From: a virus
Taxonomy: Duplodnaviria; Heunggongvirae; Uroviricota; Caudoviricetes; Crassvirales
Virus record (IMG/VR): IMGVR_UViG_3300033069_000976
Coordinates: 29,013 to 93,012 of that record
Strand: one strand, 5' to 3'
DNA length: 64,000 nucleotides
The position numbers and the translations under genes are program-made. Every line of letters begins with the position of its first letter. Within the stretch, counting starts at the first letter, position 1. Under the pieces are notes generated by a model, which saw nothing but the letters and a program-made list of their open reading frames with translations, ran no database searches and was not told the DNA's origin. Below, piece by piece: positions 3,001 through 51,454 of this stretch.

Positions 3001-5330
3001 TAGTACTCTGTACCTATCTCAATATCTTCTTCACCATCTTTAGTGGTTATCTTAATAGTTTTGGGTTTAACTATTCCATTCTCATCCACAATAGTAGTAT
3101 CGGATGGCGTAAGTATTTTTTCATCAGGTTCATCATATTTCTCAGGTGATGTAGCTATATCATTATATTCTTTTAAAAATGACTGCCTCTTATTAGTCAT
3201 TATATAAATATCATTCAAATCCCTTTTTAGATCAGAAATCTCATCTACAGTGCCATTTATATTATTGACAAAAGTTTCAATATCCTTTTTTGATATTTCA
3301 AAAGCTTCTTTGTCATTTTTAACAATACTGTCAATCATAGACTGTACAGGAATACCTTTCGACAAGGGTATTTGAGAAAGCTCAGATATTCTGGTATCAT
3401 AGTCTGCTATTTTAGAAACAGCATAAGCCATTTTATCTATAACACTTTCACTATATAGCTTCTTTTTAGAACCATCAGGTAATTCTAAATACTGACCCCC
3501 ATATTTTAAATATAAAGCTTCATAAGTTGTCTTAGCTAAATCTGCATGTTTTTCAAAGTTACTAAGGCGTTTCCCAAAAGATAGAACAGTGTCATTTTCA
3601 TTAGCATATCCTTCTTTTTTTAATCTATCAAGCCCTTCTTTAGTAGCTCCTTGATTTCTTAACCCGGCTATATCTTCTTTTACAAGGTCATATCTACCAT
3701 GCTTTATTCTAACAGCAAGATAATTATTCATTAAATCTGCTTCATTATCTTTAGTAGATAAAATATCCCCTTGTCTTATAAAACTTTCTCCTTCATACAT
3801 TAAATTAACCCCTCTAGCAGCAGCATCTTTCATATCTGAAAACCACTTTAAACTAGATGTATTATTAATTTCCTGTACTTGTTTATCAGTTGCTGCACCC
3901 TGTAATCCGCCTTCTCCTAAAAATCCTCTTTGTTTTATATTACCCCTGATTTGCTGCATTCCTCCAGATAAACCACCCAGAAGTATACTTTCCATACCCT
4001 CTTTAGTCTGTACTTTTTTAACCCCCTCCACTAAAGAATCTATAAAAGATGCACCTTCCCCACCATATCTCTTATTATAATAATCCTTTGTACCTTCCTG
4101 AAAAACAAATTGAGCACCTTCTTCAAAGGCTTCACTACCAGAAAAGAATAATCCACCGCCTTTATAAATATTTTTAGCTACTTTTTCTAATCCTTTAGGT
4201 GCAACCCTTTCTAGAGTACCATCTAATAGTCTTCTAGTAGCACCTACCTCTCCCATAGCCGCAGCTTCTGTATTAGCAAGTGCTTTGGAAGTAGAATATC
4301 TACTACCTAATATCTTTGGTAATTGAATATAGTTAGTAGCAGATAATAATCCCAAATTCATAATAAATCTAGCATTTCCTAATGAAGTACTTTCTTCATT
4401 AATCTTAGCCATCTCATCAGCATTTGGCATCCGAAAATTCTTAGCTCTAAACTCTTCTACTTTACTTTCTCTAAATTCGTTTAGACCTTGTAAAGCCTCT
4501 ATTCCACCTTCTGTAGCAGCCCCAAAAAAAGAAGTTACTGCCCTATCTACCTGTGTAGCAGATAATTTAGGGAGAGCTTTTGTCAAAGTTTCTACAAATT
4601 TAGTTACTCTTGCAGCAACTGGGGTTTGTGGCAGTACTTGTTCCAAAGTTTCTGTTAAAGCTGCTAATTGTCTGGCATCAGATAGTAATCCAACACCTTT
4701 CATAGCTGTAGATAAAGCCTTGGATACTACTCCACCTGAGTATATAGCACCTATTGAAAAGCCTATATTCTTTATTACTTTATCCCATAAAAAATTAGCA
4801 GTAAAAAAATTATCTGGAGAATACCAAGCTGCATTTGTTTCTTGTGCTGTATAATAATTAGGTAAAACATTTTCAGCTTCCTTATTAATTTTCTCTAAAT
4901 AATTAGAAAAATCATTATTGTAGAAACTGTTTAAACCATTTCCACCAACTACATTTGCCAAGCCATTTACTAAACCTACTGTGCCCTGAAGAAAAGTTGT
5001 ACCAGCTAATGTCAAACCTTTTAAAACACCATTAGCTGCTTTGTCCCAGTTACTTTGCATCTGACCATATAAATCCTCATTATCCCACCCAACTAATTGT
5101 TTATCATATCTACCTGTTTGGTCTACAAGCTTTGGAGATATTAATTGTGGTTTAAAAGGATTTTGAAAAGAATTCAATATTAAATTTCCCTGATTTTGCA
5201 GGGAACTATTTATCTGATCTAAAGACATATCAGCAATAGGCACAGAGGGACCAGGACCAAAGGAAGGAAGACTTCCCATTTTCCCAAAATTAGACTCATT
5301 TAATTTATTCTCGAACTCTGTATTAGGCAT
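1..5330 (-). CDS. Giant virion protein, partial (>1776 aa; the 3' end runs off the window start). It has a Gly-rich N-terminal part, a central coiled-coil-like region and an acidic E-rich tail near position 1.
   Basis: ATG at 5330-5328 overlaps the upstream stop (TAATG). The frame (codon first positions = 2 mod 3) stays open to nt 1. The plus-strand ORFs 649..918 and 1108..1989 are antisense shadows. It is the last gene of the minus-strand virion operon. Confidence 0.55.
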   Translation of the reverse strand, partial: MPNTEFENKLNESNFGKMGSLPSFGPGPSVPIADMSLDQINSSLQNQGNLILNSFQNPFKPQLISPKLVDQTGRYDKQLVGWDNEDLYGQMQSNWDKAANGVLKGLTLAGTTFLQGTVGLVNGLANVVGGNGLNSFYNNDFSNYLEKINKEAENVLPNYYTAQETNAAWYSPDNFFTANFLWDKVIKNIGFSIGAIYSGGVVSKALSTAMKGVGLLSDARQLAALTETLEQVLPQTPVAARVTKFVETLTKALPKLSATQVDRAVTSFFGAATEGGIEALQGLNEFRESKVEEFRAKNFRMPNADEMAKINEESTSLGNARFIMNLGLLSATNYIQLPKILGSRYSTSKALANTEAAAMGEVGATRRLLDGTLERVAPKGLEKVAKNIYKGGGLFFSGSEAFEEGAQFVFQEGTKDYYNKRYGGEGASFIDSLVEGVKKVQTKEGMESILLGGLSGGMQQIRGNIKQRGFLGEGGLQGAATDKQVQEINNTSSLKWFSDMKDAAARGVNLMYEGESFIRQGDILSTKDNEADLMNNYLAVRIKHGRYDLVKEDIAGLRNQGATKEGLDRLKKEGYANENDTVLSFGKRLSNFEKHADLAKTTYEALYLKYGGQYLELPDGSKKKLYSESVIDKMAYAVSKIADYDTRISELSQIPLSKGIPVQSMIDSIVKNDKEAFEISKKDIETFVNNINGTVDEISDLKRDLNDIYIMTNKRQSFLKEYNDIATSPEKYDEPDEKILTPSDTTIVDENGIVKPKTIKITTKDGEEDIEIGTEYYLGDYVKKDAKGRDVYLFPKFTVLGENPDGTIQVKDKDGIRNVSKEEFIKYKPGKVSDTLNNKKAKYYFDNINNIFEFNFGKGKKRKGRLRYSPKDRILEFVYVDGNKTKTIEVTGDQFVPKNGYKQALITKVGTLTVAEEKTLQDFAKEKDDRIQEKRAARLQIIESIVDETGDRIEKVKKSLEEKYRQLDNTVIELDKLEGKIKAGELTKRNNFNAFTQRALNAAKKLVRLRDTLTQEIEALEGEKEELEFNLEYFYDLAQNIDELPTDSADFQEELNEQALDLGILIDETAKSITQATRLLEKTEKALDTAIAWIQENIEAFQKGYPNVPTDIYSQEFIDFLKANPNFLKLRPDFKQDLADLEGMIGEMEEFEIKPLEKLIAELKANIKDVMEELPLLEKQYVAKEVIVNKFNDIALQHKRAEAAKKQAEADAKFLQGIFGTKVNQPSSDNTDTKGDIENEKDSPKKRITSIASTVDESKSTNQTVLENVRRHNSFLNNVSRMPPEKASEIRVTLVNNSNAPAGIMDKALAGYDVPDVDNTVVAIYSNTDGKFVDVNGKATENPDEYVISVMASDKLTSSRGDRYSVPKDVSEEDWHNWYKGMRAKWLAATEPEIYEFTVSGGIPQRNKTNIAYNVTENLISEEQIGQKGLVQVSIDGTINVNGISKKYTPGRVVLVNGNSTAFLNNRNFTDQEAEIIYKSFQTLAATKKGEKWNTSVVKFLRDVMLFGDPTTGDKPKAAARNQFWIDNKGNLNIGPTGFKASFTSEFLALPEVKAGLIKIIKGAYQNVNAATLKSNDKFVEITGFDKEGVPQTRVWQSYQHYLLSPTFALDETLDDKEENGKKRSDVPLTNNLQLPIDGSEPFIQKYSTIVPREDEVVETTTKKKAASKKEAEENTFTAEDTDGEVAKKPSTKKSLTLKERIEAAKKGKQPIAKEEEEEEEGEEKGQVTPEKKEVKKARPSLKERLAAAKISAQEAAQSFVNEVPSTKGNSQNDMA

Positions 5331-7882
5331 TATCTTCCTGATTTAATTTTTTGTGCAATATTTAACTCTACCCAATTCTTATCCTGTAACTTATTAACAG
5401 CAGCCATAATAGCCTCTTCTGACATGTCTTGGTTTAAACCATTATGTTCCCCAATAATCTCACCATCAATAATCATATCTGTTTTAGTAGCTGTTCTATC
5501 TTGTTTTGCTACCCACCATCTTAATTTATGAGCACCTTCTCCATTAGATATAACATTATATTTTACAATATATGGAGATCCTGGTCCCTGATATGCTTGG
5601 TAAGCATCTGTAAAACTATTACCAGTATACATACCTCTGTTCAAATTTAGCTTAGTTTGGAACTTTTGTCTAAAGGCTGAATATTGATTTTCTTCTGGGA
5701 ACATCCTTAGATATTCTGAACCAGGTATTTTAATAGTTGCTTTCTCCTCTCCATTTTGTACTGAAAGGAATCCTTCTTGTGTAGTAGGATTTAAGTATCT
5801 GCTATAAATATTTTGTTTAAGCACATCGGGTTTACCAAAAAGAAGAGACTCGAACTTTTTATAATCCCCTTTATCAGAACCAGGATTTAGGTCAGTTACT
5901 TGTGTAACTGCTGATGCATAATTAGTTCTTGTAATATCATTTAAATTAGATGGAACAGTAACTGTATATCCAACAGGGGACTTTTGCCTTTCCATATAGG
6001 CATTCTCTTTTTCTTTTACCACATTTAATAATGTGGGATTTTTAGCAAGTACTTTAGAAGCTTTATCAAAAGCTTCTTTTAAAGCTTGTGGAACTGCCTG
6101 TACATATTCTCCATATCCAACATTATTAGTTCCGATATTCATACCAACTTCCCAATCATTACCATATTTTTGTTTCAACCCAAGTTCAGTTGATTGCCAA
6201 CCACTTAACTTATTTTTTACTATATAAGCTTTTGTAAAATCGGAAGCAGCTTCTTTAGACACTTTAACTTCTTGGCTTATGGTATTTACTAAAGCATCCA
6301 TTTGTGGAGCAAAAGCTGTTTCTACATCGTTAACTATCTTTTTAGATAACTCTAAGTTAGCATAGTTATCTTGTGATTTTGTATATAAATCATATAATTT
6401 CTTATCATTCTGTATAAGAGTACCAACACCATTAGATGAAGCTGCTTCATCAAAAAATTTCTTAGCTACAGCATTTGCATCATTTTCTGTTTTATAATCC
6501 TTTCCTGTACCAACATTTGGAACCCATGTACCAGTAGCATCATCTTTATAATAAGGTACTGGAACTCCCTGTTTAACAGCAAGGTTATATGCCAACTCTC
6601 TCATACTTTGAGTATATACATATTGATTTTTACTAATATCCTCTCTTGCTGTATTTTCATTTTTTATTACTTCAGTAGGATTTAAGGCTGTAGGACTTTT
6701 TACACCTTCAGCTTCTTCCTTAGCCTTCTTTGCCTCCCTTGCTTCTTTAGTAGCTGCTAAATTGTAATTAGCTACATCCATTTCTTTATCCCAAGCAAAT
6801 TTATCCGTTGCAAGTTTATGCTGCATAGACCACTGCTGCATCTGAATATTCCATTTACTCATTTCAAAAGAGGTCTCCCATAAAGGATTTTTCTCCATTA
6901 CTTTTGAAGTGTATGCACCTATTAAACTTGATAGAGTTTGTTGAGAAACTATATTAGCTTTTACAGCATCTGGATTAATTGTTAATCCTTCTTTGTAAGT
7001 AGATAGAGACTCTATCTGCCCTTTGTTTAATTCTTTTAAACTTTGTATACTTGCTTGGGCATCTTTGTCTCCAACAGCAGCTTTAGCAGATAAGCTTAAT
7101 ATAAGCTCTTCATTTTTCTTTATTATCTGGTTAGCCCTTTCCTCTATTCCCTGATATATTTCAGAGGGCTTTTTTCCTCTGAACATAAATTTACCATCTA
7201 TTTGTAATTGTTGTTGAACATTGGCATCACCTTTCACCAGATTCCAAACAGCTTGTACTTGTTCAGCAGTCTTTCCTTTAAATATAACTGGGTTAATTTC
7301 CCTTTCTCCTTTAGAGTTAATCCTTGTCATATCTTCATCTGGATTCTCTGTTGGGTTTGTCTCTTTCCAATATTTTAAAAATATGTCAATTTTATCTGTA
7401 TAAGGAGTAAAGCTATCTTTAAAAGAAGTGGAAACATTCTTGTCACTTAACCATTCATTTGCTGAATCAGTAAATACTGTCTCATTAGCTATATTTGATT
7501 TACCAGCTTTTCTGGCTGCTTCTATATCAGCTATACCTTTCCTGTAATTACCAGTTGATATTACAGCATTTTGTACTATAGGGTCTTTATAAATATGTAC
7601 AGCAGCTCCACCAATCTGGTTGGTTATTCTACTATCAGAGAAATCCCCAGACAGATTCTTGGCAATACCCTGCTTAACCTCATTGAGTTTAGTAGATACA
7701 TATTGTTTATGCTCTTCCTTAGCTATATCCAACCCAGCTATAGTATCCACATAGGCTTGTACCTTAGCAATTCCTTGCTTAAAGTCTTGTTCCTTCTGCA
7801 TACCTACAGCTACCATTGCTTGAACAGGGGTAGTCTCGATGTAAGGATTGAACTGAATTGGTTGATCGGTAAAATTCGACAT
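5330..7882 (-). CDS. Large virion/internal protein (850 aa), function unknown
   Basis: Long ORF in the structural operon, with a start/stop overlap with the downstream gene. Confidence 0.5.
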   Translation of the reverse strand: MSNFTDQPIQFNPYIETTPVQAMVAVGMQKEQDFKQGIAKVQAYVDTIAGLDIAKEEHKQYVSTKLNEVKQGIAKNLSGDFSDSRITNQIGGAAVHIYKDPIVQNAVISTGNYRKGIADIEAARKAGKSNIANETVFTDSANEWLSDKNVSTSFKDSFTPYTDKIDIFLKYWKETNPTENPDEDMTRINSKGEREINPVIFKGKTAEQVQAVWNLVKGDANVQQQLQIDGKFMFRGKKPSEIYQGIEERANQIIKKNEELILSLSAKAAVGDKDAQASIQSLKELNKGQIESLSTYKEGLTINPDAVKANIVSQQTLSSLIGAYTSKVMEKNPLWETSFEMSKWNIQMQQWSMQHKLATDKFAWDKEMDVANYNLAATKEAREAKKAKEEAEGVKSPTALNPTEVIKNENTAREDISKNQYVYTQSMRELAYNLAVKQGVPVPYYKDDATGTWVPNVGTGKDYKTENDANAVAKKFFDEAASSNGVGTLIQNDKKLYDLYTKSQDNYANLELSKKIVNDVETAFAPQMDALVNTISQEVKVSKEAASDFTKAYIVKNKLSGWQSTELGLKQKYGNDWEVGMNIGTNNVGYGEYVQAVPQALKEAFDKASKVLAKNPTLLNVVKEKENAYMERQKSPVGYTVTVPSNLNDITRTNYASAVTQVTDLNPGSDKGDYKKFESLLFGKPDVLKQNIYSRYLNPTTQEGFLSVQNGEEKATIKIPGSEYLRMFPEENQYSAFRQKFQTKLNLNRGMYTGNSFTDAYQAYQGPGSPYIVKYNVISNGEGAHKLRWWVAKQDRTATKTDMIIDGEIIGEHNGLNQDMSEEAIMAAVNKLQDKNWVELNIAQKIKSGR

Positions 7883-7968: not shown

Positions 7969-10900
7969 TTAATTTGAACCTTTATATTTTTTAATAATAC
8001 TTCCATTGAATTTCAAATCACCAAGTTGCTTCTGCAATTCCAGGTATTTTTTATCCCTTACATAAGTGGGTTCAATAGTTTCTTTCTTTGATTTTTCAAC
8101 ACCATTCTCATAAGTAGTTTGAGTCTTCTTATCAGTAGCAGCGAAAGGATTAGTACCTATTTGAGTAGGAAAAGTAACATATTGTTCACCACCTGGACCT
8201 TGTTTAACTACTTGATAGTTATTATCAAAGTCATAGTGAGGGAACAGGTTCTTATATGTGTTTAACAAATTATTAGAGGCTTTCTTCTGCAATATCTTGG
8301 AAGATATAGAGTTAAGAGCATTTGTCCTATTCTGTTTAGTTATACTCTTAGCTTGGTTTTGTCTAACATACTGTTGATCAATTAGGGATATATTCTTTAG
8401 TTTTGCATCATTTAATAATGCCACATTCTTATTAGTTATATCATTAGATATAGCCTGATTAGTCCTGAACTCTTCAGCTAATACAGCATCATTAGCAGAA
8501 TACTGTTGTCCAGCCATAGTAGCTAGAGCTTCTGGATTACCAGCCATAGTACTCTGTAAAGCATTGAATGTCTTAGAGTTCTGATTAATCCTGTCCTGGA
8601 AAGATACCTGATAAGGTGTATATAGGTCTGGATTATACCTTTGTCCTTCTACAAAATCTGGTCTATCAAATAATGCAGCAGTTTCTCCCATCACTTGAGA
8701 AAGTTCAAGTTTATCTTTTGTAGGATTTATCTTCCAAGGTTCTACTTTCTGCCATTGAAAAGGGTCCGAACCTTTAGCTGGTTGATTAGGTGTATTAGGT
8801 TTCTTACCATCCATAGCAGCTATTTCTTCAGGTGTTAAACCCTTTAGCTGTGGAGTAGGTAAACTAAAATCAGGAATACTATAAAAGTCAGTGTTAAAAG
8901 CCTTAGCCTTTGTTGGGAACTCCTTATTATCAGTTGCAGTTATATTTTTAACATACTCCCTTGTCTGAGTTCTCCATAAAGAAGGGTCTTTTGAAGGTCT
9001 TTTTTTAAAATCCTCTTCTTGAAAAGCTAACCATTCATCCCCTGTAATATTATCTTTTCCAAGTTTCTTTTTAGCGTGGTTAATAGTTCCTTCCCCACCG
9101 TTATAGGCAGCAAGAGCTAGTTTTATATCACCATTGTACTTATATAATAAATTTTCTAATTCAGTAGCACCAGCAGCTAAAACAGCTCTAACATCATTGA
9201 CATCAGTAGATGTTAATTGTTTTTGAGATATTCCATACTTTTTAGCTACTTTAGGAGTAAGCATAACTATCCCTTTAGCATTTACACCAGTACGAGGATT
9301 TTTTCTTGATTCCCGAGTAGGGTCATAACCACTTTCTTGAGTTACCAGTCTATGAAATATTTCAGGATCATAATCTAAATTTTGTCTAGCAGCTTCCCTT
9401 ACAAGTCCTTCATAAGGATTACTATATAAATCTGGAAGTTCTATAGGATCATGAGCTGGGGCAGCAGTCACACCACTTTGAGCTTTGATTATCTTACCAT
9501 GTTTGGCAAAAGCTTGTTCTCCTTCTATTTCAAGTTGTGCCTCCTGTAATTCAGCAAGGTGAGCTTTAGAATCGGCTATTTGCTTTAGCTTAGTGGCAGC
9601 TCCTTCCATCATAGCTCTACCAGAATTGAAAGCTAATCTTTCAAACTTATCTGTAGGGTCTTTTTCATTAACTAACTTAGTACCTTTATCCAGATACTTG
9701 GTTAATTTTTGTTCTTTTTTCATTATTTCTTTAGCGTCTTTCTTATAAGTTCTTCCAGTTACTGGATTTATCAGGTCTCCAAAAACAACACCTTTACCTT
9801 CTATTTTAGCAAAAGGTTCTCCACCCTCAGCTTCAAATGGTTGACCATTAAAAGAAGAAGTAATTCCACCCTTTTCATGAGAGTCCCCAGTAAATAAGTG
9901 TGTACCACCATCAAACATATTCTCAGATACTTTAGGAGCATTACCTCCTTCATAGGTCATAAGCCCTTGTCCTTGATGAGAAGCTTTAATAGATTTTCCT
10001 TTCTTTGCAATAGCTTGTGAACCAGTACCATAAGCATATGGATTATAAGCTAAGGTATTATCTATCTTTCTTCTTTCTCCTTCTGGACCCATTAACATCT
10101 GAGCCATTCCTATACCAGAGGTTATAGCCTCTCCAACACCAAATGAAGGGTGGTTATTTTTACTCTGTTGATGGTCAACAGTTGCTTTTCCATTTGTTTT
10201 TTGAAACTTAGTTTTAACACTGGATGTAGGAATCGGTGTACCAAAACCCTGGTCTACAAATTGTGGTTGTTGATTTGGATCATAATTTGGATTAGCTTGA
10301 ACAGGTTGAGCATCTGGATTTACTGGTATAGTATTATCATACTGATCTCCCCATAACATTTCATCCTTTTGCTCTTGAGTAATTAACCCCTTTTTCTTTC
10401 CAGTAAAGAACCCTCCCTGTGCTTTAGGTATTTTACCCTTCATGGACTTACCATGTTTAGCTACGGGTGCAATAGGCATCTCATTTATACTATGATGCAT
10501 AAACTCTGGTCTATACACATTACTATCAGGAGTGTTGTTGTTAAAATAGTCTATATTACCTTTAATACTCTCCAGTAGGGTTGGAGAATCATTACCTTGT
10601 AAACCACTATATCTACCTTCTACAGTGTGTATAGCTTTTTTCTTAAGGTCTATAGATGTCCCCTTCTGGGCTTTAATTCTTTTTTCTTTAACAGTTCCTT
10701 TCATAATAGTAGTATCTTGTGGTCCAGTAAGTATTTTTTGTTTACCAGTAGCATCTTTCAGTAATACAGGTTGTCCATTATCTAAACCACGAAATATATT
10801 ATTACCCTGCATAGGAAATTCCATTTCCGTATACATAGGGTTGTTTAATCCCACAAACTGCTGTTCAGGAGTAACTGCTAAACCTTTTTTGGCTTTTGGG

Positions 10901-10992
10901 AAAGCCTTGAAGAAAGATGCTTCATCAGGATACTTCTCATAAAATTCTTTCTCTGTTTTTACCCCTGCTAATTTTAGAAATTTGTGTTTCAT
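7969..10992 (-). CDS. Virion protein with a lytic transglycosylase (SLT) domain (1007 aa), a likely injection or cell-wall-penetration protein
   Basis: SLT motifs: catalytic TQESGYDP, GIVMLTP (GLMQ-like) and AAYNGGEG (AYNAG-like). A Q/N-rich N-terminal half is present. Confidence 0.65.
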   Translation of the reverse strand: MKHKFLKLAGVKTEKEFYEKYPDEASFFKAFPKAKKGLAVTPEQQFVGLNNPMYTEMEFPMQGNNIFRGLDNGQPVLLKDATGKQKILTGPQDTTIMKGTVKEKRIKAQKGTSIDLKKKAIHTVEGRYSGLQGNDSPTLLESIKGNIDYFNNNTPDSNVYRPEFMHHSINEMPIAPVAKHGKSMKGKIPKAQGGFFTGKKKGLITQEQKDEMLWGDQYDNTIPVNPDAQPVQANPNYDPNQQPQFVDQGFGTPIPTSSVKTKFQKTNGKATVDHQQSKNNHPSFGVGEAITSGIGMAQMLMGPEGERRKIDNTLAYNPYAYGTGSQAIAKKGKSIKASHQGQGLMTYEGGNAPKVSENMFDGGTHLFTGDSHEKGGITSSFNGQPFEAEGGEPFAKIEGKGVVFGDLINPVTGRTYKKDAKEIMKKEQKLTKYLDKGTKLVNEKDPTDKFERLAFNSGRAMMEGAATKLKQIADSKAHLAELQEAQLEIEGEQAFAKHGKIIKAQSGVTAAPAHDPIELPDLYSNPYEGLVREAARQNLDYDPEIFHRLVTQESGYDPTRESRKNPRTGVNAKGIVMLTPKVAKKYGISQKQLTSTDVNDVRAVLAAGATELENLLYKYNGDIKLALAAYNGGEGTINHAKKKLGKDNITGDEWLAFQEEDFKKRPSKDPSLWRTQTREYVKNITATDNKEFPTKAKAFNTDFYSIPDFSLPTPQLKGLTPEEIAAMDGKKPNTPNQPAKGSDPFQWQKVEPWKINPTKDKLELSQVMGETAALFDRPDFVEGQRYNPDLYTPYQVSFQDRINQNSKTFNALQSTMAGNPEALATMAGQQYSANDAVLAEEFRTNQAISNDITNKNVALLNDAKLKNISLIDQQYVRQNQAKSITKQNRTNALNSISSKILQKKASNNLLNTYKNLFPHYDFDNNYQVVKQGPGGEQYVTFPTQIGTNPFAATDKKTQTTYENGVEKSKKETIEPTYVRDKKYLELQKQLGDLKFNGSIIKKYKGSN

Positions 10993-10994
10993 AT

Positions 10995-13904
10995 TTAATA
11001 TTTATTAAGCCAATTATTTTTTATTGTACCACCTTGTTCTTTAGGAGAAATTAATGTTTTTTCTTTAAACCCTGGAAAAATTTTTAATAAATTATCCCTT
11101 ATATTTTTAGTATTAACATCTTCTGGCTCGGCTTTTCTTATAGCATCCATTAACTGCCTAGTAAATTCATTATTTGCTAATACAGCCGGTGACATAGCTG
11201 TCCCCACTAATTTACTAATTAAGGATTTTTTAGGTTTTAATACTTCAGAATAATCAATATCAGTATTATATGAAGGATATGAATTCTCAACATTATCTAT
11301 AGAAGACACACTCTTTGATTTATTTATAATACCTTGCTCAATGTTCTTTAAAGAATTAGGAATGTTTATTCCTGTATTAGATGTAGTGCCAGATACATTG
11401 CTGATAGTGCTATTGGGTTGTCCTGTATTAAATACACCGTTAGAATTACCTGTTGATGTATTTGTGAGTCCACTCTTTATATTTTTTGGTATTCTTCCAC
11501 TTGATGTTGGTGTAATTGTTTTAAAAGCTTCTGCTCCTGTGTATGGTTCTCCAACTACACTATTATACATTCTTTTATTATCAATTTGAGATATTTTAAT
11601 AAATTTAGCACGTTGTTCTGGTGGTAAATTATCTATCATATTATCTATGATATTCATTCTTTTTCTTTGAGCTTCACTCCATATTTGATTATCACCTAAT
11701 GGAACAATACTTTTAGTTGATCTATCTACTGATGATAATAAATTTTCTGATTCTCCAACTATTTTTCTAGCTCCACTTTCTGGAAATTTTGGATCTATAA
11801 TATGAAGATTATAAAAATCACCCAATTTTTTTGCTTTATTACCATGAATTTTCCTAAGGATAGTTAAACTACTTTGTAATAATTCGTCCATGGATATTCC
11901 ATTATCTTTAGCTAATTTAGATAGCTCATTAAAATATTCTGTATTATCTGCACCTGGTTTCCAATTAAACTTGCTTGAAGTTTTAGTATACAAATCAAAA
12001 ATTTCTTTCTCTCTTGGAGTCATAAAGTTTCTTGCACCTAATAATTCTTGTTTACTAAATTGTCCTTTTGCAATAGCTTTTTGTATACCTAATTCTTGTG
12101 AAGATGGATAACTACGTGTTGTTTTTGGTAAAGGTTGGATATCACCAAAACCTTCTCCTAACTGATATAATTTTTTATCCCCTTGTTGTGTATATACACC
12201 TAATTCATCAATACCTGTTGATGATAAAGATTTTGCACCTTTTACAGCACCTTTCATAATATTTTTATACGTTCCATATAATTCTCCAGCTCCTGTTACA
12301 TAACTTGCAGCTTCTAAAGCATTAGCAGCATGATCCATAAATTTATCATTAGCTTTAGCTCTTGAACCATAATCTGGTGTACCTGCTACACTTCTATTAT
12401 ATTGTTTTGGGACTAAGTCTCCTTGTTCATTTACTTTTGAATAAGGATTGCTAGCTGCATAGTTTCTATTCTTTATAATAGTTGCTGCTCTTTCAGCTGC
12501 TGTTGGAACTCTTCCTTGATTTAAATATGCTGCTTCAGCTTGTATTCTTTCTAATTGTTGTTGAGCTAATGTTTTTTGTTTGTTTATTGGTAGAGCTGTT
12601 GTACTGGCAACATTAGTTAAAGATTTAATAGGTTTTATTCCTGTTATTGCTTCAAAACTTCCACCACTTTGAGCAATAGGAAGTTGTTGATTATTATCTG
12701 TTTTTGATACACTATTTAATAAATCAACTATTTCAGCATCTGTATAAATCATTCTTAAATCACTTAAAGAATCGATATTTATTTTATTTAATTGTTCAGG
12801 ATTAATAAATTGCGTAAAAGGATTATAAATATTATTACGTTTAGAATGAGCTCTAATACTATTTAATCTAGCTCTTGTTTCAGATGGATCACCAACATAT
12901 TTCATTTGTTTATTAACAGTATCTCTTGTTGTAGAATCCCATACATCATTTACAATTTGTTTTTGTTGTAATTCATTAATATTTTTATTTTTAAAATTAT
13001 CTAAGATTGCTGGAGATGTATATATATCTTTAGCAGCATAGGAATTAATTTTATTTTGATCTATTGAAGGAATAAGTGTACCATTATAATCTGAAGCATG
13101 TGATAATTCATGAATTGCTGTATCAATATCTTTTTCTCCTGGTACTAATATACCAGATGAATTATACTTACTATCAACTCTTGCTGTAGTAATAACAGGA
13201 AACTTATTAGAACCTATTACTGACAACCCTGAAACTTTTTCACCAGGCACTAGTGTTGAATTTTCACTTCTCTTAACAGTTGTATTCTTTAAAGCTATTT
13301 TTCTTGCAGCATCATAAACAGAACTATTCATACCTGCACTTTTTTCTAACATTTCTTTATACTTTGGAGAATCTATCCATTGTGCATTAAAATTTTCAGC
13401 AGTAGTAATTCCTGATTGAGCTTTTGGTAAAATCCCACCTCTATTTTTTCCATTCCATAGTCTAATAGCATCATCAACTAATTCTAGTTCTCTTGAGGGG
13501 TTTTGTTTACCATGTCTTAAAATTGGTTCTATATTTGTTTTAAAGTATTTCTCTGCTTGAAGTCCATAATTATGTAATTTCAAACTATCATCATAAGCCA
13601 TTTTTAGTGGATCTTTAGGATCAGTTACATATATTGGTGTACGTCCACCTTTTTGAGCAGTTGGTAGTAAATTCTTTGAATCATTTTTTACAAAATTATT
13701 CAACATCCATTGAATAGTTTTATCATCATAATAACGATATAACGGATTATTAGAATTTTCTTTTTTTATTTGCTTCATTAGTGTAGCATCACTAGAATAA
13801 TTATTTAAAGAAGTAACAGTTTTTATCCTAGTAATATCTTCAAAGCTTTTTCCACCCTGAGCTTTTATAGTGCCTCCTTCTTGATATTTTTTTAACCATC
13901 CCAT
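10995..13904 (-). CDS. Large virion protein (969 aa) containing an HExxH (zincin-like) motif
   Basis: AIHELSHASD motif. The start ATG overlaps the ferritin stop. Confidence 0.45.
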   Translation of the reverse strand: MGWLKKYQEGGTIKAQGGKSFEDITRIKTVTSLNNYSSDATLMKQIKKENSNNPLYRYYDDKTIQWMLNNFVKNDSKNLLPTAQKGGRTPIYVTDPKDPLKMAYDDSLKLHNYGLQAEKYFKTNIEPILRHGKQNPSRELELVDDAIRLWNGKNRGGILPKAQSGITTAENFNAQWIDSPKYKEMLEKSAGMNSSVYDAARKIALKNTTVKRSENSTLVPGEKVSGLSVIGSNKFPVITTARVDSKYNSSGILVPGEKDIDTAIHELSHASDYNGTLIPSIDQNKINSYAAKDIYTSPAILDNFKNKNINELQQKQIVNDVWDSTTRDTVNKQMKYVGDPSETRARLNSIRAHSKRNNIYNPFTQFINPEQLNKINIDSLSDLRMIYTDAEIVDLLNSVSKTDNNQQLPIAQSGGSFEAITGIKPIKSLTNVASTTALPINKQKTLAQQQLERIQAEAAYLNQGRVPTAAERAATIIKNRNYAASNPYSKVNEQGDLVPKQYNRSVAGTPDYGSRAKANDKFMDHAANALEAASYVTGAGELYGTYKNIMKGAVKGAKSLSSTGIDELGVYTQQGDKKLYQLGEGFGDIQPLPKTTRSYPSSQELGIQKAIAKGQFSKQELLGARNFMTPREKEIFDLYTKTSSKFNWKPGADNTEYFNELSKLAKDNGISMDELLQSSLTILRKIHGNKAKKLGDFYNLHIIDPKFPESGARKIVGESENLLSSVDRSTKSIVPLGDNQIWSEAQRKRMNIIDNMIDNLPPEQRAKFIKISQIDNKRMYNSVVGEPYTGAEAFKTITPTSSGRIPKNIKSGLTNTSTGNSNGVFNTGQPNSTISNVSGTTSNTGINIPNSLKNIEQGIINKSKSVSSIDNVENSYPSYNTDIDYSEVLKPKKSLISKLVGTAMSPAVLANNEFTRQLMDAIRKAEPEDVNTKNIRDNLLKIFPGFKEKTLISPKEQGGTIKNNWLNKY

Positions 13905-14422
13905 TAGCTTCCTAATTCATTGTCAAGTAATCTAAGTGCAATTTTATCTTCACCAAAAGCTTCAAGCTTATCAAGTAAAGTTTGTAACTTACCAATTTCT
14001 TCTTGTTGCTCTTGCAGGAATTTATTAGCTAACTGATACAGGAGATTATCACCTGTCTTTAAAGCATTATTAGCTAGATCATTACATTGTTTTGTAACCA
14101 ATATTTCATGCTCAAAGGACATCTTTATTATCTCACACAATCCAGGGAATTCTTGTTGTGGCTTTGGTAAAGCAGGTAATGTAGGTTGTACACCCATATC
14201 CAATAGATATTCTTTAGCCCAATTAGCGTGAGTCATTTCATCTTCTGAATCCTTTTTCCAAGCTTTAGCTGCACCCATAAACCCATGATCATTTAACCAT
14301 AAAGACATGGCTTGGTATAATCTGGAAGATTGTTCTTCTTGTTCTATCCTATAATTCAGTATCTTAATTACAGATTCAGAAGCAAATGGGTTTTTTGGCT
14401 GGGTTGTTTTGAATAATTCCAT
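13904..14422 (-). CDS. Ferritin-like protein (non-heme ferritin fold; ferroxidase-site ExxH and ExxE motifs retained)
   Basis: LYQAMSLWL..GAAKAW..SEDEMTHANWAKEYL..FEHEILV..EQQEEIGK matches the bacterial Ftn pattern LYqqMSaW..GAA..EEmtH. Confidence 0.7.
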   Translation of the reverse strand: MELFKTTQPKNPFASESVIKILNYRIEQEEQSSRLYQAMSLWLNDHGFMGAAKAWKKDSEDEMTHANWAKEYLLDMGVQPTLPALPKPQQEFPGLCEIIKMSFEHEILVTKQCNDLANNALKTGDNLLYQLANKFLQEQQEEIGKLQTLLDKLEAFGEDKIALRLLDNELGS

Positions 14423-14428
14423 AGTATT

Positions 14429-17400
14429 TTATTTATAAGATTTTTGTGTTTGGGTAACAAAAAAGGAACTCACAAATTTAAGATTATCATATTTGTCGTT
14501 AATCAGTCTAATCTTTAAATCTTTAGACCTAATAGGAGCTTTGTTAAAAGATCTCTTATTATAAGACATATTACTCTGATTAAGCTCTTTGAATATAGAA
14601 ACAGACTCACAAGAAGGTAACCAAATAGGTTGTTTATTATTCTTCACCAAGTCCCAGAATGTATTAAACTGATAAAAACTACCTGATTTTGTATATAGAA
14701 TAGTCTTGGATTCAGGGTTATACTTGGGATACTCTTTCTGTGTAAACAAGTTATTCTTTGGTTTCTTATCTAACTCTAGTATACCAGAACATTGTTGATT
14801 GGAATAAACTATACATTTGTTAAAATAAAAATCATCCGTCTCAACGAAGGACTGCCAATTATCGTACTGTAGTATTTTTGAATAGTCCTGTACATTTTGT
14901 AATATCTCATCTAAGTATTTATATGAATAAGGATACTCTATAATATATGGAGCAATTTCTCCATAGAAGTTATTATAAAGAGTTAATGCTGTATCATGTT
15001 TCCAGATACCATTTTGTTTACCTGAGTAGAAAAAATTGTTATTTCCCACATAGTAGTTAGGTAAATAAGAATGGTATGAAGTCCATGAATTAGTAGTGAA
15101 TGAATAAGATATAGTAAAGGATGTATTACAGAAATACTTAGAATCGGTTAATTCTACTACTGTACCACCATCCTTAAACACTTCTCCATCATAAGTAATA
15201 GTGCTGAGTAATGGTTTATAGTCTAATTTAGTTATTATAAACCTGTCATATTTAGGGTCATAAACTCCATGTAATCCAGCACCATTGAAATGGTTATCAA
15301 TAGAATACTCTGGGAAAGCTTTCTTTATTGTAAATGGAAGATACTCTGTAAAGAATTTACTAGCACCTTCAGCACTTAGTTCTTTACTTTGTTGTCCTTT
15401 AATTAAGAATATCTGACCTCTTAAAGCATCTATAGTAATATCTCCATGCTCTGTTTTTAACAGGAACTTGTTCTGTGTACCTATATAACCTAAATCTGTA
15501 TCTGCATAATCCCAAGGTGGTACAGTAGTTGTAAATAGACTCTTACCAAGATATACATCTGCTACACTTGTAGGAGCTGTTAATAATGTGTTATATAACT
15601 GTGTTTTATTTTCAAATCTTACCAGTACTTGGGTATTCTCAATACCATCAACAGATACTAGTAATCCATAGTTCTTAGGAAAATCTATCCTGCTAATAGG
15701 TTTATATACTAACCAGTTATTCTTTGTTTCCTCAAGAGAAGACTTTTCTGACCAAATTGCTCTATTCTGAAATTCAGAATTACATAGTTTGTTAGGGTCA
15801 TAATCTTCTCTGAGGTGTGCAAAATAATTTTCTTTATTCTGTTTAGAATACGTCTTATTATAAGTGTACATATTATCCTGGATAATGGGAACAGATACTT
15901 CTTGTAACCAATCATCAGGTATATCTCCTCCTACATTAGGGTAGAAATTACCTTCTCTGGTATTAGTAGCTTGCCTATAATCCACATTAACCTCTGATTC
16001 ACAAAAGAAATAAGGAATGCCATAAGCAAATAAATAGAATAGACCTTGTTCAAATAACCTGGATGAAACAGCTCTGTCAAGATTAAGATTCTTTACACCT
16101 ATCTTATCTCCTATTTCTTCAAATAATTTAGCAACTAAAGCCATAGCTTTTTGAGAACCTCTAGCACCACCACCAACTATATTAGCTATAATATCAAAAA
16201 ATGAAGGAGCAAGAAATTCCTGTCTAACATCTTCAATCTCAGCATCTAAATCAACATCATAACTCTGGGCTTTGGTAGACATCCAGAACATAGGGTAATT
16301 TAAGTTTCCTATATCCTCATATGCTATATCAGTAGCATTAGGATTCCCAACTGTATTATCCCTAAAGAATGGAAGCTTTGATTTATAAGCAAACCTGTTT
16401 ATAAACACATCTCCACCGAATATAGTAGGATATTCTGATACAAAGTTACCCAGTGAATCCCTAAGACTCTGGTAATATCCTGTATCAATGGTTTCATAAG
16501 AGTACATATATCCCCATTGATTAGGTAAGTCTCTTTTTATAGAACCATAATAAGAACTTATGTCAGCTAGTCTATTTGTTTCTGGGGATAGAAAATCACC
16601 ATTTAGAGATGCTATATTGTATCTAGAAGTATCTGTAGGGATACTATTAGAATATTCATGTGGAAATTGAAAATCTCCACCAGTTGCTATATATACAGAA
16701 CTTTCTCTACGGAAATTATTTATAACCTTTCCATTTTCAACAGAGTTTAGTCCGTCTATAATATATTTATTAAAGTTTATTCCCCTTTGTTTAAACCCAT
16801 CATTAGGTATTCCAAATGACCTGTTATAGTTTCCAACAGAGTTAAAAGTATAACCAAAGTTTGTAAATGGTGCTAACCTTTCAAATAGTTCTACAGCAGC
16901 TACATAAGTAGGAACTACATTAGCCATTGTATACTCAGGCCACCCCATCATACCAGCTCCAATAACTACACCACCAGAAATACCTAGTCCAGCAGCAGCC
17001 TGAATAGCTCTTGGTGTAAGAAATTTATATTCTGCATTATCAGTTACTTTAACAAAATGCCCAACAGATTGTCCATACTCAATAGTTTCCATCTTAAGAA
17101 ACTGTCCTGTATTACCTAAAGAAGGTTGATAAAAATGAGTATCAGGAGAATGGAAAGTAAAATGACTTTTAGAATCCAGATTGTCAAATCCTTTTAAAGC
17201 ATCATTAGTTATAAATCCAGCATGACTATCCAATTTTGTATTTACGAAATAAGGATCTTCCCTTAAATCATTAAATGGATAATTAGGATAAAAATAATTC
17301 TTATCATCATATCTTGTAACACCTACATTGTGTATAAGTCCTTTAGCTATGATACTCTTATTATTTACCCTGTTTCCTCTTGTTATCTTAAATCCTGCTA

Positions 17401-19060
17401 TTTGTGAAATTTCTTCAGCAGTAAGTGTTTCCTTAAGAGCCTGTATAAAAGATATAGGATTTATCTTAACCCCTAATGGAAATATAGAATGTTCAAAGGA
17501 AGGGTCATTTAAGTCATTATTATCATGTATAGGACTAACCAATACATCAGGCATTTTATGATGTCTGATTCTTTGATTGGCTAATGTTCCCCATATCTCT
17601 GTATTATTAGGATACCTTTCTTCACTTTCCCAGTAAGCCATTTCTCCATATTGATATGGTCCGATATAACAATCTCCAGGAGTAGTAGGATATGGTGTAG
17701 CAGTTACACTACCTGTATTATAAACTTGCCAATAGAATTTTGGCTTAGGAGGGTTACAGGGATCAACAGTGGAAAACCCATTATCTGGATTATCTGGCTG
17801 AACAATCTGTACATCCTGCATATTAGCTTGTCTACCAGGGATATGGTAAGACCTGGATTGTTTACCATTCTTGAATATAAAACAACCTTCATAAGGATAT
17901 ACTTCATCCCTCATATACCCCTTAAACTTCTCTACATTAATACCATTATTATAACCCTGAAATTGATTATAAGGTATTTTATATGATTCCCAAAGTAAAC
18001 TTACTTTACTCCAGAATGGTTGATAATTCTTTTCTTCAGTCTCTTTAAGTATATCCCAACCAAGTACATTATCCACCACAAATAAATCTTCTGCCACATC
18101 ATAATATGGGTACTTCTGAAATACATCTTCTATATTAAGAGCCTTATCTGTTTTATTAACACCAGTGTATGTATATGTATAAGTAGGATTCGCAGTGGGG
18201 AAAGTACCTACTTGTTCTACAGATACTATATTATTAATTGTTTTTATTACTATTAGATTGAAATACTCATATAGTCCACTCTGATCCAGGTTTGTTATCT
18301 CAAATGTAATTGCTTTAGCAGTCGGAAGGTTAAAATCTGGTGATTCTTTCTGTTCAAAAATACCAATAGGATTTGTAGCATTATACATCCCTGTAAGACC
18401 TTCTCCTAAAGAATTTGCATATTGTACAACCCCCTGATAAACACCAGTTAATAAGTTTCCACCAATGGTAACTTCGGTTCCCTTTATTTCAGGTATACTA
18501 AAATCAGGTTGAACCCTTAACTTATTACAATCCAGTTCCCCTACTTTCTTTATTCTTTTGAAGGAATTATTTGGATCAATTTCCTCAACCCAGGGTAAAT
18601 CATCCAAATCAATATACATCCTGTGACCCGGTTGACCATCAGTAAAGTAAACCTGTGTAGAACAATTGGTTGTTTTTACAACCATTTTGTGAATGGGAAA
18701 ATTGATATTAAACCCAAATTTACAACCATTTCCTACATCAGATATAAGGGTTTTATATTCACAAGTATCATTAGTCCCAAGCCCTACTTCACTATCTCCA
18801 GTTTCTGGATTTGTAAGTATAAAAAATATCTTACCTAATTGAGAGATATTTTTAGCTCCTATAACTTTATATCCTACAGGAAAATCAAAACAAAAAAGAT
18901 TGCCTTGTTCATTCTGAATAGTTAATATGTTACCATCCCATCCCTCTACTACGGCATTCAGTGCATAAGGATATTGCCCTGGCTTTAACTGTGAAGTTAT
19001 AGAGTCAGGATTTAAACCAAAATAAAGTTGTTTAGGATTCAGTGAAATTTCTTCAGCCAT
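14429..19060 (-). CDS. Giant structural protein (1543 aa), candidate baseplate or receptor-binding/tail protein
   Basis: Long ORF between the tail-fiber module and the ferritin gene; no recognisable catalytic motif. Confidence 0.45.
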   Translation of the reverse strand: MAEEISLNPKQLYFGLNPDSITSQLKPGQYPYALNAVVEGWDGNILTIQNEQGNLFCFDFPVGYKVIGAKNISQLGKIFFILTNPETGDSEVGLGTNDTCEYKTLISDVGNGCKFGFNINFPIHKMVVKTTNCSTQVYFTDGQPGHRMYIDLDDLPWVEEIDPNNSFKRIKKVGELDCNKLRVQPDFSIPEIKGTEVTIGGNLLTGVYQGVVQYANSLGEGLTGMYNATNPIGIFEQKESPDFNLPTAKAITFEITNLDQSGLYEYFNLIVIKTINNIVSVEQVGTFPTANPTYTYTYTGVNKTDKALNIEDVFQKYPYYDVAEDLFVVDNVLGWDILKETEEKNYQPFWSKVSLLWESYKIPYNQFQGYNNGINVEKFKGYMRDEVYPYEGCFIFKNGKQSRSYHIPGRQANMQDVQIVQPDNPDNGFSTVDPCNPPKPKFYWQVYNTGSVTATPYPTTPGDCYIGPYQYGEMAYWESEERYPNNTEIWGTLANQRIRHHKMPDVLVSPIHDNNDLNDPSFEHSIFPLGVKINPISFIQALKETLTAEEISQIAGFKITRGNRVNNKSIIAKGLIHNVGVTRYDDKNYFYPNYPFNDLREDPYFVNTKLDSHAGFITNDALKGFDNLDSKSHFTFHSPDTHFYQPSLGNTGQFLKMETIEYGQSVGHFVKVTDNAEYKFLTPRAIQAAAGLGISGGVVIGAGMMGWPEYTMANVVPTYVAAVELFERLAPFTNFGYTFNSVGNYNRSFGIPNDGFKQRGINFNKYIIDGLNSVENGKVINNFRRESSVYIATGGDFQFPHEYSNSIPTDTSRYNIASLNGDFLSPETNRLADISSYYGSIKRDLPNQWGYMYSYETIDTGYYQSLRDSLGNFVSEYPTIFGGDVFINRFAYKSKLPFFRDNTVGNPNATDIAYEDIGNLNYPMFWMSTKAQSYDVDLDAEIEDVRQEFLAPSFFDIIANIVGGGARGSQKAMALVAKLFEEIGDKIGVKNLNLDRAVSSRLFEQGLFYLFAYGIPYFFCESEVNVDYRQATNTREGNFYPNVGGDIPDDWLQEVSVPIIQDNMYTYNKTYSKQNKENYFAHLREDYDPNKLCNSEFQNRAIWSEKSSLEETKNNWLVYKPISRIDFPKNYGLLVSVDGIENTQVLVRFENKTQLYNTLLTAPTSVADVYLGKSLFTTTVPPWDYADTDLGYIGTQNKFLLKTEHGDITIDALRGQIFLIKGQQSKELSAEGASKFFTEYLPFTIKKAFPEYSIDNHFNGAGLHGVYDPKYDRFIITKLDYKPLLSTITYDGEVFKDGGTVVELTDSKYFCNTSFTISYSFTTNSWTSYHSYLPNYYVGNNNFFYSGKQNGIWKHDTALTLYNNFYGEIAPYIIEYPYSYKYLDEILQNVQDYSKILQYDNWQSFVETDDFYFNKCIVYSNQQCSGILELDKKPKNNLFTQKEYPKYNPESKTILYTKSGSFYQFNTFWDLVKNNKQPIWLPSCESVSIFKELNQSNMSYNKRSFNKAPIRSKDLKIRLINDKYDNLKFVSSFFVTQTQKSYK

Positions 19061-19061
19061 A

Positions 19062-19919
19062 TTATCTTATCTCATATTTTTGAAAACGGTTCATATCCTT
19101 TATTATCTTCCTGTTTATATCATATACAGTTTCTTTTTTCTTCTCTATATCTGCGATAATATAAGCTTCATCAGCCATTCTTGTATACCTATCTAACTGA
19201 TTAAGATAATATTTTGTTAATCCTTCATCAGTATTATTATTCACAACCTGTTCCCAAACCTTCATTTTTAAGAAGGCTTCAATGAATTCTTTTAATCTGT
19301 AATTATCAGGAATCATTTCATACCCATTACAATCAAAGCTTTTTGAATAATACACTAAGTATACTTTTCCTTCTCTAAAGGTTACAGTAAATTTATTATC
19401 ATGTATATCAAAAGAATCTGGACCATTAGAATGGAAATTTGCACAGTCTTCAGCACACTCACCTTTACTCCATATAGTACCAGGTTTTAGCAGGTATTGC
19501 TTCTTATAGTGTGCAAAGGCTGTATGAGTAGTTTTATATACCGCTTTAATAATATCAGGCATACCACACTCATTACATTTATCACAATATACATCTGGGG
19601 TATCTAATCTTGTAGAAGTGGATTCAACTTGTTGATAATCAGCCCCAGGTAATACATAAGCAGATGATACATCAGTGCATAACCAAGCTTCTCTTACAGC
19701 ATAAAAATCATCAGGGAGTCTTCCTTGAAAATCACTCATTGTAAGAATAGCTGAATTTATTCTATATGAACCTCTTCCTAACCTATCTAAACATTTAGAC
19801 AGATAAATGGGAAACATAGTGTCATCAATAGCCCCTGTATCAAAAAATGATTTAAACTCTTCTTTAACAATAGCTATTAATCTTTCTGGGCTTTCAAAGG
19901 TATATTTGTAGTAATTCAT
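19062..19919 (-). CDS. Structural-module protein (285 aa), unknown
   Basis: ORF tightly packed in the operon. Confidence 0.45.
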   Translation of the reverse strand: MNYYKYTFESPERLIAIVKEEFKSFFDTGAIDDTMFPIYLSKCLDRLGRGSYRINSAILTMSDFQGRLPDDFYAVREAWLCTDVSSAYVLPGADYQQVESTSTRLDTPDVYCDKCNECGMPDIIKAVYKTTHTAFAHYKKQYLLKPGTIWSKGECAEDCANFHSNGPDSFDIHDNKFTVTFREGKVYLVYYSKSFDCNGYEMIPDNYRLKEFIEAFLKMKVWEQVVNNNTDEGLTKYYLNQLDRYTRMADEAYIIADIEKKKETVYDINRKIIKDMNRFQKYEIR

Positions 19920-19920
19920 A

Positions 19921-20394
19921 TTAACTCCACTCTTGGTATTTATAATGTTGTTCTGGTTGAGAAAGATAATGATTTAATAATCTAGAAGTAACCCTGGATG
20001 GTTTAAAACACCATAAAGCAGAGTATTGAAATCTAGCATTTTTCTTATCCCACTGCCATTTAAATTTAAATCCCTCGGTATTAAAATTCATATGGTAAAT
20101 TAATTTACCATGCTCTTTAGTTTTAGCCCAGTTAACTGGTAAGCCTATTATTTTTGTACCATCAGGAAGTTCTTTTTCTTTTTTGGGTTTATATTTTGTT
20201 ATTGTAAAGTCTCCAAAACCATATGGAAACTTGATTTTTCTCCCTGTTTCCAGTATATAATCCCTGAAGGCATAATTGAAATTATAGACTATATTACACC
20301 AGGTATTATAGTCTATTTTTAATTCTGGATGTTTCTGTTTAAACCTTTTAAAAACATCCTTCTCTGTAGTTCTATATTCTACGGCTACTCTCAT
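19921..20394 (-). CDS. Hypothetical protein (157 aa)
   Basis: ORF; ATGA-type overlap with its neighbour. Confidence 0.45.
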   Translation of the reverse strand: MRVAVEYRTTEKDVFKRFKQKHPELKIDYNTWCNIVYNFNYAFRDYILETGRKIKFPYGFGDFTITKYKPKKEKELPDGTKIIGLPVNWAKTKEHGKLIYHMNFNTEGFKFKWQWDKKNARFQYSALWCFKPSRVTSRLLNHYLSQPEQHYKYQEWS

Positions 20395-21095: not shown

Positions 21096-21304
21096 GGTTT
21101 ATAATATTCTAAATATGATATTGGTAATATATCTTTATAAGATTTTTCATATATCTCTTTTGCTATAGTATATCTATTATCTTTACTAAAATCTATTCCA
21201 TACAATATACTATATTCAAAGTTTTTATCGGCTATATCTTTAATAAAGGTAAAAGCTGTTTGCATTTCTAAAGACATCCAAACTGCGTTATATTCTTGCT
21301 TCAA
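21092..21304 (-). CDS. Small hypothetical protein (70 aa)
   Basis: ORF overlapping both neighbours. Confidence 0.35.
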   Translation of the reverse strand: MKQEYNAVWMSLEMQTAFTFIKDIADKNFEYSILYGIDFSKDNRYTIAKEIYEKSYKDILPISYLEYYKP

Positions 21305-51438: not shown

Positions 51439-51454
51439 CTAAAAATATAAAATT

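Follow-up and report, generated by a model that had tools for sequence, protein, structure and literature searches.

A ferritin gene in the virion operon of a crAss-like phage, its conserved relatives and its exchange with a putative Dps-like protein

The DNA analysed here, referred to as the window, is a stretch of 64,000 nucleotides from a virus of the order Crassvirales (IMG/VR record IMGVR_UViG_3300033069_000976, positions 29,013 to 93,012), and the subject of this study is a ferritin gene that it carries. A preliminary description, made from the sequence alone, had placed a 172-aa open reading frame (ORF) at 13904–14422 of the window, and this ORF was confirmed on the minus strand, running from ATG to TAA. 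Profile matches to CrAss_Ring_1 and CrAss_Ring_2 identified the phage as crAss-like, and its portal, large terminase and major head protein belong to families common to relatives that match the Pfam entries Crass_capsid and Ring_3_4. On the minus strand, the genes follow one another in the order tail ring protein 2 (CrAss_Ring_2 profile match; 20391–21095), a 157-aa gene, tail ring protein 1 (CrAss_Ring_1 in Pfam; 19062–19919), a homologue of the crassvirus muzzle protein (1543 aa; 14429–19060), the ferritin, a 969-aa protein of unassigned function (10995–13904), a 1007-aa protein with a profile match to the SLT lytic transglycosylase domain (7969–10992), an 850-aa protein of unassigned function belonging to the same operon (5330–7882), and a giant ORF (at least 1776 aa; 3–5330), whose ATG overlaps the stop codon of the 850-aa gene and which passes the start of the window. 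Throughout this same-strand block, neighbouring genes overlap or are separated by gaps of 1 to 6 nt, with the exception of one gap of 86 nt.

The 172-aa protein matched the Pfam profile PF00210 with 88.4 bits (cut-off 24.5; E = 5.4e-25) over profile positions 1–140 of 142, so that it does not fall into a non-ferritin four-helix family devoid of di-iron ligands. The closest solved structures by sequence were bacterial non-heme ferritins (E = 4e-25), aligned over residues 18–171; the full-length likeness to these proteins reported in the preliminary description was thus borne out, and all the peptide motifs quoted there were found in the translation. The top NCBIfam model was NF007638 ("non-heme ferritin"), an equivalog model of enterobacterial FtnA, with a score of 91.7 bits that lies under its equivalog cut-off of 178. 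Judged by these scores, the window protein is a ferritin, though not an orthologue of FtnA. A model computed with AlphaFold2 (AF2; mean predicted local distance difference test score, pLDDT, 94.5) displayed the ferritin fold, with an A–D helix bundle followed by a short E helix (helices at residues 16–45, 49–75, 95–123, 126–156 and 160–171). When this model was searched with Foldseek, it superposed on the ferritins of Vibrio cholerae (3QZ3) and Escherichia coli (1EUM) with a template modelling (TM) score of 0.90 and a root-mean-square deviation of 0.8–1.1 Å.

According to the alignment with the PDB sequences, residue n of FtnA corresponds to residue n+12 of the window protein. In this register, the reference ligands E17, E50, H53, E94 and E130 of FtnA, together with Q127 and Y24, are found as E29, E62, H65, E106 and E142, together with Q139 and Y36, which upholds the claim that the ferroxidase ligands are retained. 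The putative site C comprises D61, E138, E141 and E142 (E49, E126, E129 and E130 in FtnA). The window gene is thus a bona fide Ftn-type ferritin with complete di-iron ligands, and its product is apparently an active enzyme, to judge from the ligand set and the predicted fold. It shares with FtnA (1EUM, 3QZ3) the fold, the length, the E helix and the A- and B-site ligands with Tyr24 and Gln127 and, at the putative site C, most of the residues. It differs in sequence, being 31–35% identical and scoring under the NF007638 equivalog cut-off; in an additional disordered basic N-terminal tail (residues 1–10), followed by the conserved motif N11-P12-F13-A14 (NPF[AV][ST] in the phage ferritins); and in the occurrence of its branch on phage-sized contigs only.

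Stop/start overlaps, taken as translational coupling, had been described for both ends of the gene. Such an overlap exists at the downstream junction, where the ferritin stop and the start of the 969-aa ORF share base 13904 within the sequence TAATG (a 1-nt overlap), and not at the upstream one, where a 6-nt spacer lies between the muzzle stop codon (14431–14429) and the ferritin ATG (14422–14420). The guanine–cytosine (GC) content of the gene equals that of its flanks (0.32–0.33, against 0.29–0.34 in the surroundings), and base composition thus gives no hint of a recent transfer. The 1543-aa protein matched PHROG families of virion structural proteins and aligns along its whole length, at 35% identity, with a 1620-aa protein bearing PF25731 crAss_MUZ; a Pfam scan of the window protein itself returned no match at E < 0.01. 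Both neighbours had been described as virion proteins, which holds for the 1543-aa protein as a muzzle homologue; the 969-aa protein is unannotated, and the label derives from its gene position. PDB sequence searches and the Pfam scan gave no match for the 1543-aa, 969-aa and giant proteins, a PHROG search gave none for the 969-aa protein, and the single library match of the giant ORF was PHROG 32390, a family of unknown function. The SLT domain of the 1007-aa protein is typical of ejected internal virion proteins.

Placement within a late virion operon, as put forward in the preliminary description, is supported by the gene order. The muzzle gene of PhicrAss001 is followed by those for gp45, gp46, gp47, gp49 and gp50, proteins that are all found in virions (PMC10172136). 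By analogy with that gene order, the window ferritin gene would sit where the muzzle gene gives way to a block that matches the cargo genes in position, with the 969-aa gene taking the place of the PhicrAss001 cargo genes. The analogy could not be extended to the transmembrane helix of gp45, as a Kyte–Doolittle scan of the four large downstream proteins found no transmembrane-like segment.

A search of 5.8 billion proteins retrieved 321 clusters, the best 120 of which were all 64–99% identical to the window ferritin and came from contigs no longer than about 166 kb, with one member in the Tara collection. In a library of representatives at 50% identity, 1,787 entries matched at E ≤ 1e-3 and 26 at E ≤ 1e-30. 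Ten clusters at 36–47% identity were looked up, and none of their contigs exceeded 133 kb, a length typical of phage genomes. The two signature motifs of the family were absent from the ferritins of 185,579 bacterial and archaeal species (one genome each), in a motif-based scan that misses divergent cellular ferritins. Among 50,697 deposited phage records, tblastn yielded five weak matches at 28–30% identity, none of them in a named crassvirus; the gene was found in no cultured phage, the gut crassviruses of GenBank included, and megablast with the 10 kb around the ferritin gene returned no match in the same records. The view that a phage-borne ferritin is uncommon therefore applies to deposited phage genomes and not to metagenomes, in which the family is large.

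The A- and B-site ligands, Tyr24 and Gln127 (FtnA numbering) do not vary across 180 unique sequences of the family, apart from one glutamate-to-aspartate exchange (E94 in 179/180). Site C is more permissive, with D, G, E or S at position 49, and positions 126 and 129 vary in a divergent set of sequences (group C below). Most members begin with a short, variable tail of net positive charge, followed by the N-P-F-[AV]-[ST] motif; the tail is net positive in 107/112 sequences and is attached to an acidic body of net charge −10. The divergent group C ferritins do not have this N-terminal extension. One family member at 64% identity (locus L026, 2904–3461) has a long, very basic N-terminal tail (MSSRTTSKRTTKKNQRT...) and lies on a contig binned as a giant-virus metagenome-assembled genome, surrounded by genes on mixed strands, unlike the phage operons.

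With the exception of L026, all the ferritin contexts found were virion modules, in which the slot occupied differed. Group A, which includes the window, has the ferritin gene after the muzzle gene, with zero to two genes in between, and large proteins with SLT, ART-PolyVal or NADAR domains come after the ferritin; in one locus (L045), the ferritin gene is found upstream of the muzzle gene, two genes away. About 34 loci make up group B, with the order TerL, portal, ferritin, a 382-aa gene and the capsid gene; here the ATG of the ferritin gene usually overlaps the stop codon of the portal gene. In group C (L047–L053; 38–53% identity), the ferritin gene is located between genes for giant proteins of 1,332 to 3,312 aa with ART-PolyVal or cpYpsA (SLOG) domains, and no crassvirus marker was detected within the 20 kb fetched. 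In 20/36 distinct loci, there is a 1-nt overlap between the start of the ferritin gene and the stop codon of the gene upstream. One ferritin-carrying relative (L003) has a ClpP-family protease gene (PF00574; 4973–5458) between the ring 1 and muzzle genes.

A neighbour-joining tree of the ferritins largely tracked gene context, a pattern consistent with descent that is mainly vertical and with relocation from time to time. The ferritin of the window is 60–74% identical to those of phages in which identity drops to 26–32% for TerL, 23–27% for the portal, 21–24% for the capsid and 23–25% for the muzzle protein. Since it has kept this identity in otherwise highly diverged phages, its gene context largely follows the ferritin tree, its GC content is not anomalous, no cellular ferritin with the signature motifs was found by the motif-based scan, and the ten clusters looked up lie on phage-sized contigs, we read the ferritin as a long resident of environmental crAss-like phages that appears to be under strong selection. 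The survey of related phages proposed in the preliminary description thus showed the gene to be present in relatives and not to be a one-off insertion.

Presence and absence were assessed in 58 loci fetched around relatives of the group B portal, of which the 53 with enough downstream sequence were counted; the portals of the loci compared are 85–95% identical. Ferritin directly follows the portal gene in 28/53 loci and does not in the remaining 25/53, among which are phages with 92–95% identical portals, and a 90.9-kb contig with a 93% identical portal was absent from the ferritin scan. The slot without ferritin is empty or holds either a protein of 128–130 aa belonging to Pfam family DUF5856 (PF19174) or homing endonucleases. 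According to hidden Markov model searches, DUF5856 is present in 16 of the ferritin-less loci, and about 10 loci carry neither protein. The two never co-occur in the post-portal slot; in two other loci (L004 and L005), DUF5856 comes directly after the muzzle gene, and both of these also carry ferritin. When a ferritin locus was compared with a DUF5856 locus with 95% identical portals, DNA homology spanned the 3' end of the portal gene and the first seven codons of the next gene (MEVPKV/IK), broke after codon 7 and resumed right after the stop codon. The exchange is therefore a clean cassette replacement between ferritin-superfamily genes.

These data bear on the nature of the gene. A required virion part is expected to be kept by close relatives, and here 25/53 portal loci are without ferritin; variation in presence and absence within a variable slot and a cellular-type enzyme function, which mark auxiliary or moron genes, are both observed. 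Because it is optional in near-identical phages, can be replaced by a Dps-like protein and differs in position between lineages, the ferritin is read as a dispensable accessory gene of the moron or auxiliary metabolic gene (AMG) type, one that would depend on strong expression late in infection, and not as an obligate structural or cargo component.

Homing-endonuclease-like genes were encountered in variable slots of virion modules at L064 5559–6101, L101 5547–6080, L089 3093–3518, L097 2423–2866 and L001 992–1768; the slot endonucleases of relatives are of the GIY-YIG/NUMOD3 and Endonuclease VII/HNH types. A relative also carries a NUMOD1 gene between the ring 2 gene and the 157-aa gene, which the window does not. 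The gene after the window's own portal (32382–32921, minus strand) was considered as a second ferritin and rejected, as it encodes an SPFH/Band-7 protein (PF01145, E = 2.6e-12); in group B phages, the variable slot that it fills is occupied by ferritin or DUF5856.

DUF5856 itself looks like a compact Dps-like mini-ferritin. This assignment is based on three observations: the top matches of its profile against the PDB were HP-NAP (E = 0.003) and other Dps proteins, with the family-invariant residues H31, H43, D58 and E62 falling opposite H25, H37, D52 and E56, the ferroxidase ligands of Dps; an AF2 model (pLDDT 88.7) retrieved almost exclusively Dps proteins as top Foldseek matches, with TM scores of 0.6–0.7 and weak E-values; and some members are named "DNA-binding ferritin-like protein" by the Joint Genome Institute (JGI). 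No similarity emerged when the profiles of DUF5856 and of the ferritin family were compared with each other (probability 0.3%). The two proteins have in common the post-portal slot in sister phages and the first seven codons, and they differ in that DUF5856 has about 130 aa and the Dps-type ligand set H/H/D/E. Examples (family P0316–P0435) are located at L056 4313–4705, L089 2706–3092 and L004 7841–8218. The family is present in 528 deposited phage records, among them many phages of Salmonella, Klebsiella and Dickeya. The rI.-1 protein of RB49/Phi1 is a DUF5856 protein, annotated as a "starvation-inducible transcriptional regulator", and in some environmental P22-like phages (MW202483.1, OR003940.1) a DUF5856 gene adjoins the portal gene.

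Taken as a whole, the window gene is probably a late-expressed accessory ferritin that serves in Fe2+ sequestration and protection from oxidative damage. It would be transcribed and translated together with the late virion genes of the crAss-like phage, so that abundant ferritin would be made during DNA packaging and virion assembly. The protein most likely assembles into the usual 24-subunit cage, which would oxidise Fe2+ at the di-iron centre and store the iron as mineral. Free Fe2+, and hence Fenton chemistry, would be removed from the dying infected cell, and phage DNA and proteins would thereby be protected. A protective function was favoured because Ftn and Dps proteins share the oxidation and caging of Fe2+ and the protection of DNA from Fenton chemistry. 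Several points weigh against this reading. The constant place in virion modules, by the portal gene, the muzzle gene or genes for giant polyvalent proteins, would also fit a packaged protein, and an AMG that acts only in the cytoplasm could be encoded at any place in the genome. The reading does not explain the NPF motif or the basic tail in front of it, and the apparent restriction of the branch to phage-sized contigs is deduced from contig sizes and a motif-based scan, not from a full phylogeny that includes cellular ferritins.

The same location has prompted the idea that the ferritin, or its Dps-like slot-mate, is loaded as cargo into the capsid or the cargo zone of the tail, where it might guard the packed genome from iron and peroxide outside the cell or, alternatively, enter the next host with the DNA. 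In the window, the ferritin gene is the first after the muzzle gene, where the PhicrAss001 genes encode virion proteins (PMC10172136), and elsewhere it directly follows the portal gene or is placed between those for giant ART-PolyVal or cpYpsA proteins; DUF5856 genes are likewise found beside portal genes in unrelated podophages. The tails, positively charged in 107/112 sequences on a body of net charge −10, point in the same direction. Dps carries a lysine-rich DNA-binding tail, which the basic tail of the ferritin resembles. Cargo status is nevertheless unlikely, as the gene is dispensable among near-identical phages and a 24-mer of 12 nm is too large for a tail channel of less than 5 nm (PMC10172136), which would leave the head at most. 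Moreover, no evidence of a targeting peptide was found, the common first seven codons being explained by the recombination junction. Close relatives without ferritin, or with a Dps-like replacement, render an obligate packaging role less likely. A packaged or DNA-associated role in the wider sense was kept under consideration, at a low probability, because of the virion-module location, the neighbours that look ejected by position or domains, and the basic tails. Little probability is attached to a bolder proposal, namely that environmental crAss-like phages and the other phages with a portal-side DUF5856 gene load an iron-oxidising cage, interchangeably Ftn or Dps-like, into the head or onto the DNA, with the basic tails binding DNA or the portal. 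If true, such a cage would be a virion-borne antioxidant, parallel to Dps–DNA co-crystals and encapsulin–ferritin compartments.

Other explanations fare worse against the same data. Ferritin is an iron store, and the phage might hoard iron for iron-dependent replication enzymes under iron limitation, with which the single family member from Tara and the lack of the gene in the gut crassviruses of GenBank would agree. This is improbable given that the late-operon position places expression after the demand of replication and that replacement by a protein of the Dps kind speaks for protection and not for supply, Dps proteins storing little iron and acting mainly as protectants; in addition, no iron-dependent enzyme was noticed in the window, about half of whose ORFs are unannotated. 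The preliminary description had also raised iron loading of tails, by which the ferritin would feed iron to HxH sites of the fibre and the virions would mimic iron carriers, in the manner of a Ferrojan Horse. The HTH and HDH motifs on which it drew are real (residues 279 and 288 of a 351-aa protein with matches to tail fibre and tail collar PHROGs). Their gene (24215–25270, minus strand) is, however, about 10 kb and several genes away from the ferritin gene and does not neighbour it as had been stated. A single HxH pair is an ordinary metal site of trimeric fibre collar domains, such as those of T4 gp12 and gp37, and the HTH/HDH pair is probably such a site. Furthermore, HxH motifs are absent from the four large flanking proteins, in which histidines are scarce (0.6–1.6%), and the ferritin gene shifts between lineages with no link to fibre genes. 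Iron loading of tails, which comes down to one HxH pair in a distant fibre gene, is thus very improbable. Least of all would we expect a passenger gene, that is, a host ferritin of recent capture that does nothing for the phage. The post-portal slot is indeed a hotspot that also takes homing endonucleases (EndoVII, GIY-YIG/NUMOD3). Nonetheless, catalytic residues are invariant in hundreds of relatives, no close cellular counterpart was found by the motif scan or among the ten clusters looked up, the GC content equals that of the phage, and the protein is 60–74% identical across very divergent phages. On sequence grounds, the passenger explanation is already contradicted by these conservation data.

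The accessory, protective ferritin favoured here has partial counterparts in known systems. "Gratiaviridae" and Lactobacillus phages carry genes for Dps and manganese catalase (PMC8008677), and a ferritin AMG has been described in a myxophage (bioRxiv 10.64898/2026.09.14.751636); in both studies, phage genes of the ferritin superfamily were interpreted in terms of protection from oxidative stress or iron. The genes of "Gratiaviridae" and Lactobacillus phages belong to the Dps or catalase families, unlike the Ftn-type window gene. For the published phage ferritin-like genes found, no virion-module location, conserved phage clade or crAss-like host phage was described, and, in the library searched, the literature on ferritin in connection with Crassvirales, crAss-like phages or polyvalent proteins, and on phage-encoded ferritin, yielded no crassvirus ferritin. 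The window ferritin resembles the PhicrAss001 cargo proteins gp45 and gp46 in that its gene comes directly after the muzzle gene, in an operon with large proteins in the position of ejection genes. It differs from them in having no sequence relation and in being small, globular, enzyme-like, dispensable in relatives and not known to occur in virions. Encapsulin systems also have a gene for an HK97-fold shell near a ferritin-superfamily gene, as in group B (portal, ferritin, 382 aa, capsid). Encapsulin cargo proteins are of the EncFtn/Flp type with C-terminal targeting peptides, whereas the window protein is a classical Ftn without a C-terminal extension. Three aspects appear to be new: a ferritin branch on phage-sized contigs only, with N-terminal features of its own; the systematic placement of ferritin in crassvirus virion modules; and the exchange of the ferritin cassette with a Dps-like DUF5856 protein.

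Crassvirales rank among the most abundant phages known, and most of their accessory genes are uncharacterised. Ferritin is the best conserved of the compared proteins common to very divergent environmental crassviruses, and this conservation, together with the Dps-like interchange, suggests that these phages repeatedly come under selection to keep iron and oxidative damage in check late in infection. A testable function is thereby offered for Pfam DUF5856, which is present in more than 500 deposited phage genomes. If a host lyses full of phage ferritin, its iron would be released in mineralised, protein-caged form, which would bear on iron cycling if such phages are common in iron-limited waters.

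Some further features of the window were recorded. A hairpin at 5186–5205 was considered as the terminator of the ferritin operon and rejected: the giant ORF runs across this terminator-like site, and the operon therefore extends beyond it. Two plus-strand ORFs nested in the giant ORF (649–918 and 1108–1989) are probably spurious, and in one relative (L001) a 3422-aa gene stands in place of the giant ORF. The 351-aa fibre/collar-like protein contains 12 cysteines, and nearby tail proteins are very rich in cysteine and devoid of histidine (a 518-aa protein with 24 cysteines and no histidine, and a 195-aa protein with 13 cysteines), which is reminiscent of the PhicrAss001 tail with its stabilising disulfides. 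Embedded among the tail genes is one for an SbcD-like DNA repair exonuclease (PHROG 704; 21288–22472, minus strand). The large terminase gene (35521–38619, minus strand) encodes 1032 aa, compared with about 696 aa in related phages; TerL profiles matched two separate stretches of the protein (about 108–477 and 502–985), and its N-terminal part also matched DnaC-like and primase-like ATPase profiles, so the enlargement could reflect an insertion, an intein or a fused domain. A single tRNA-Cys (GCA) is encoded in the window, at 51368–51439 on the plus strand.

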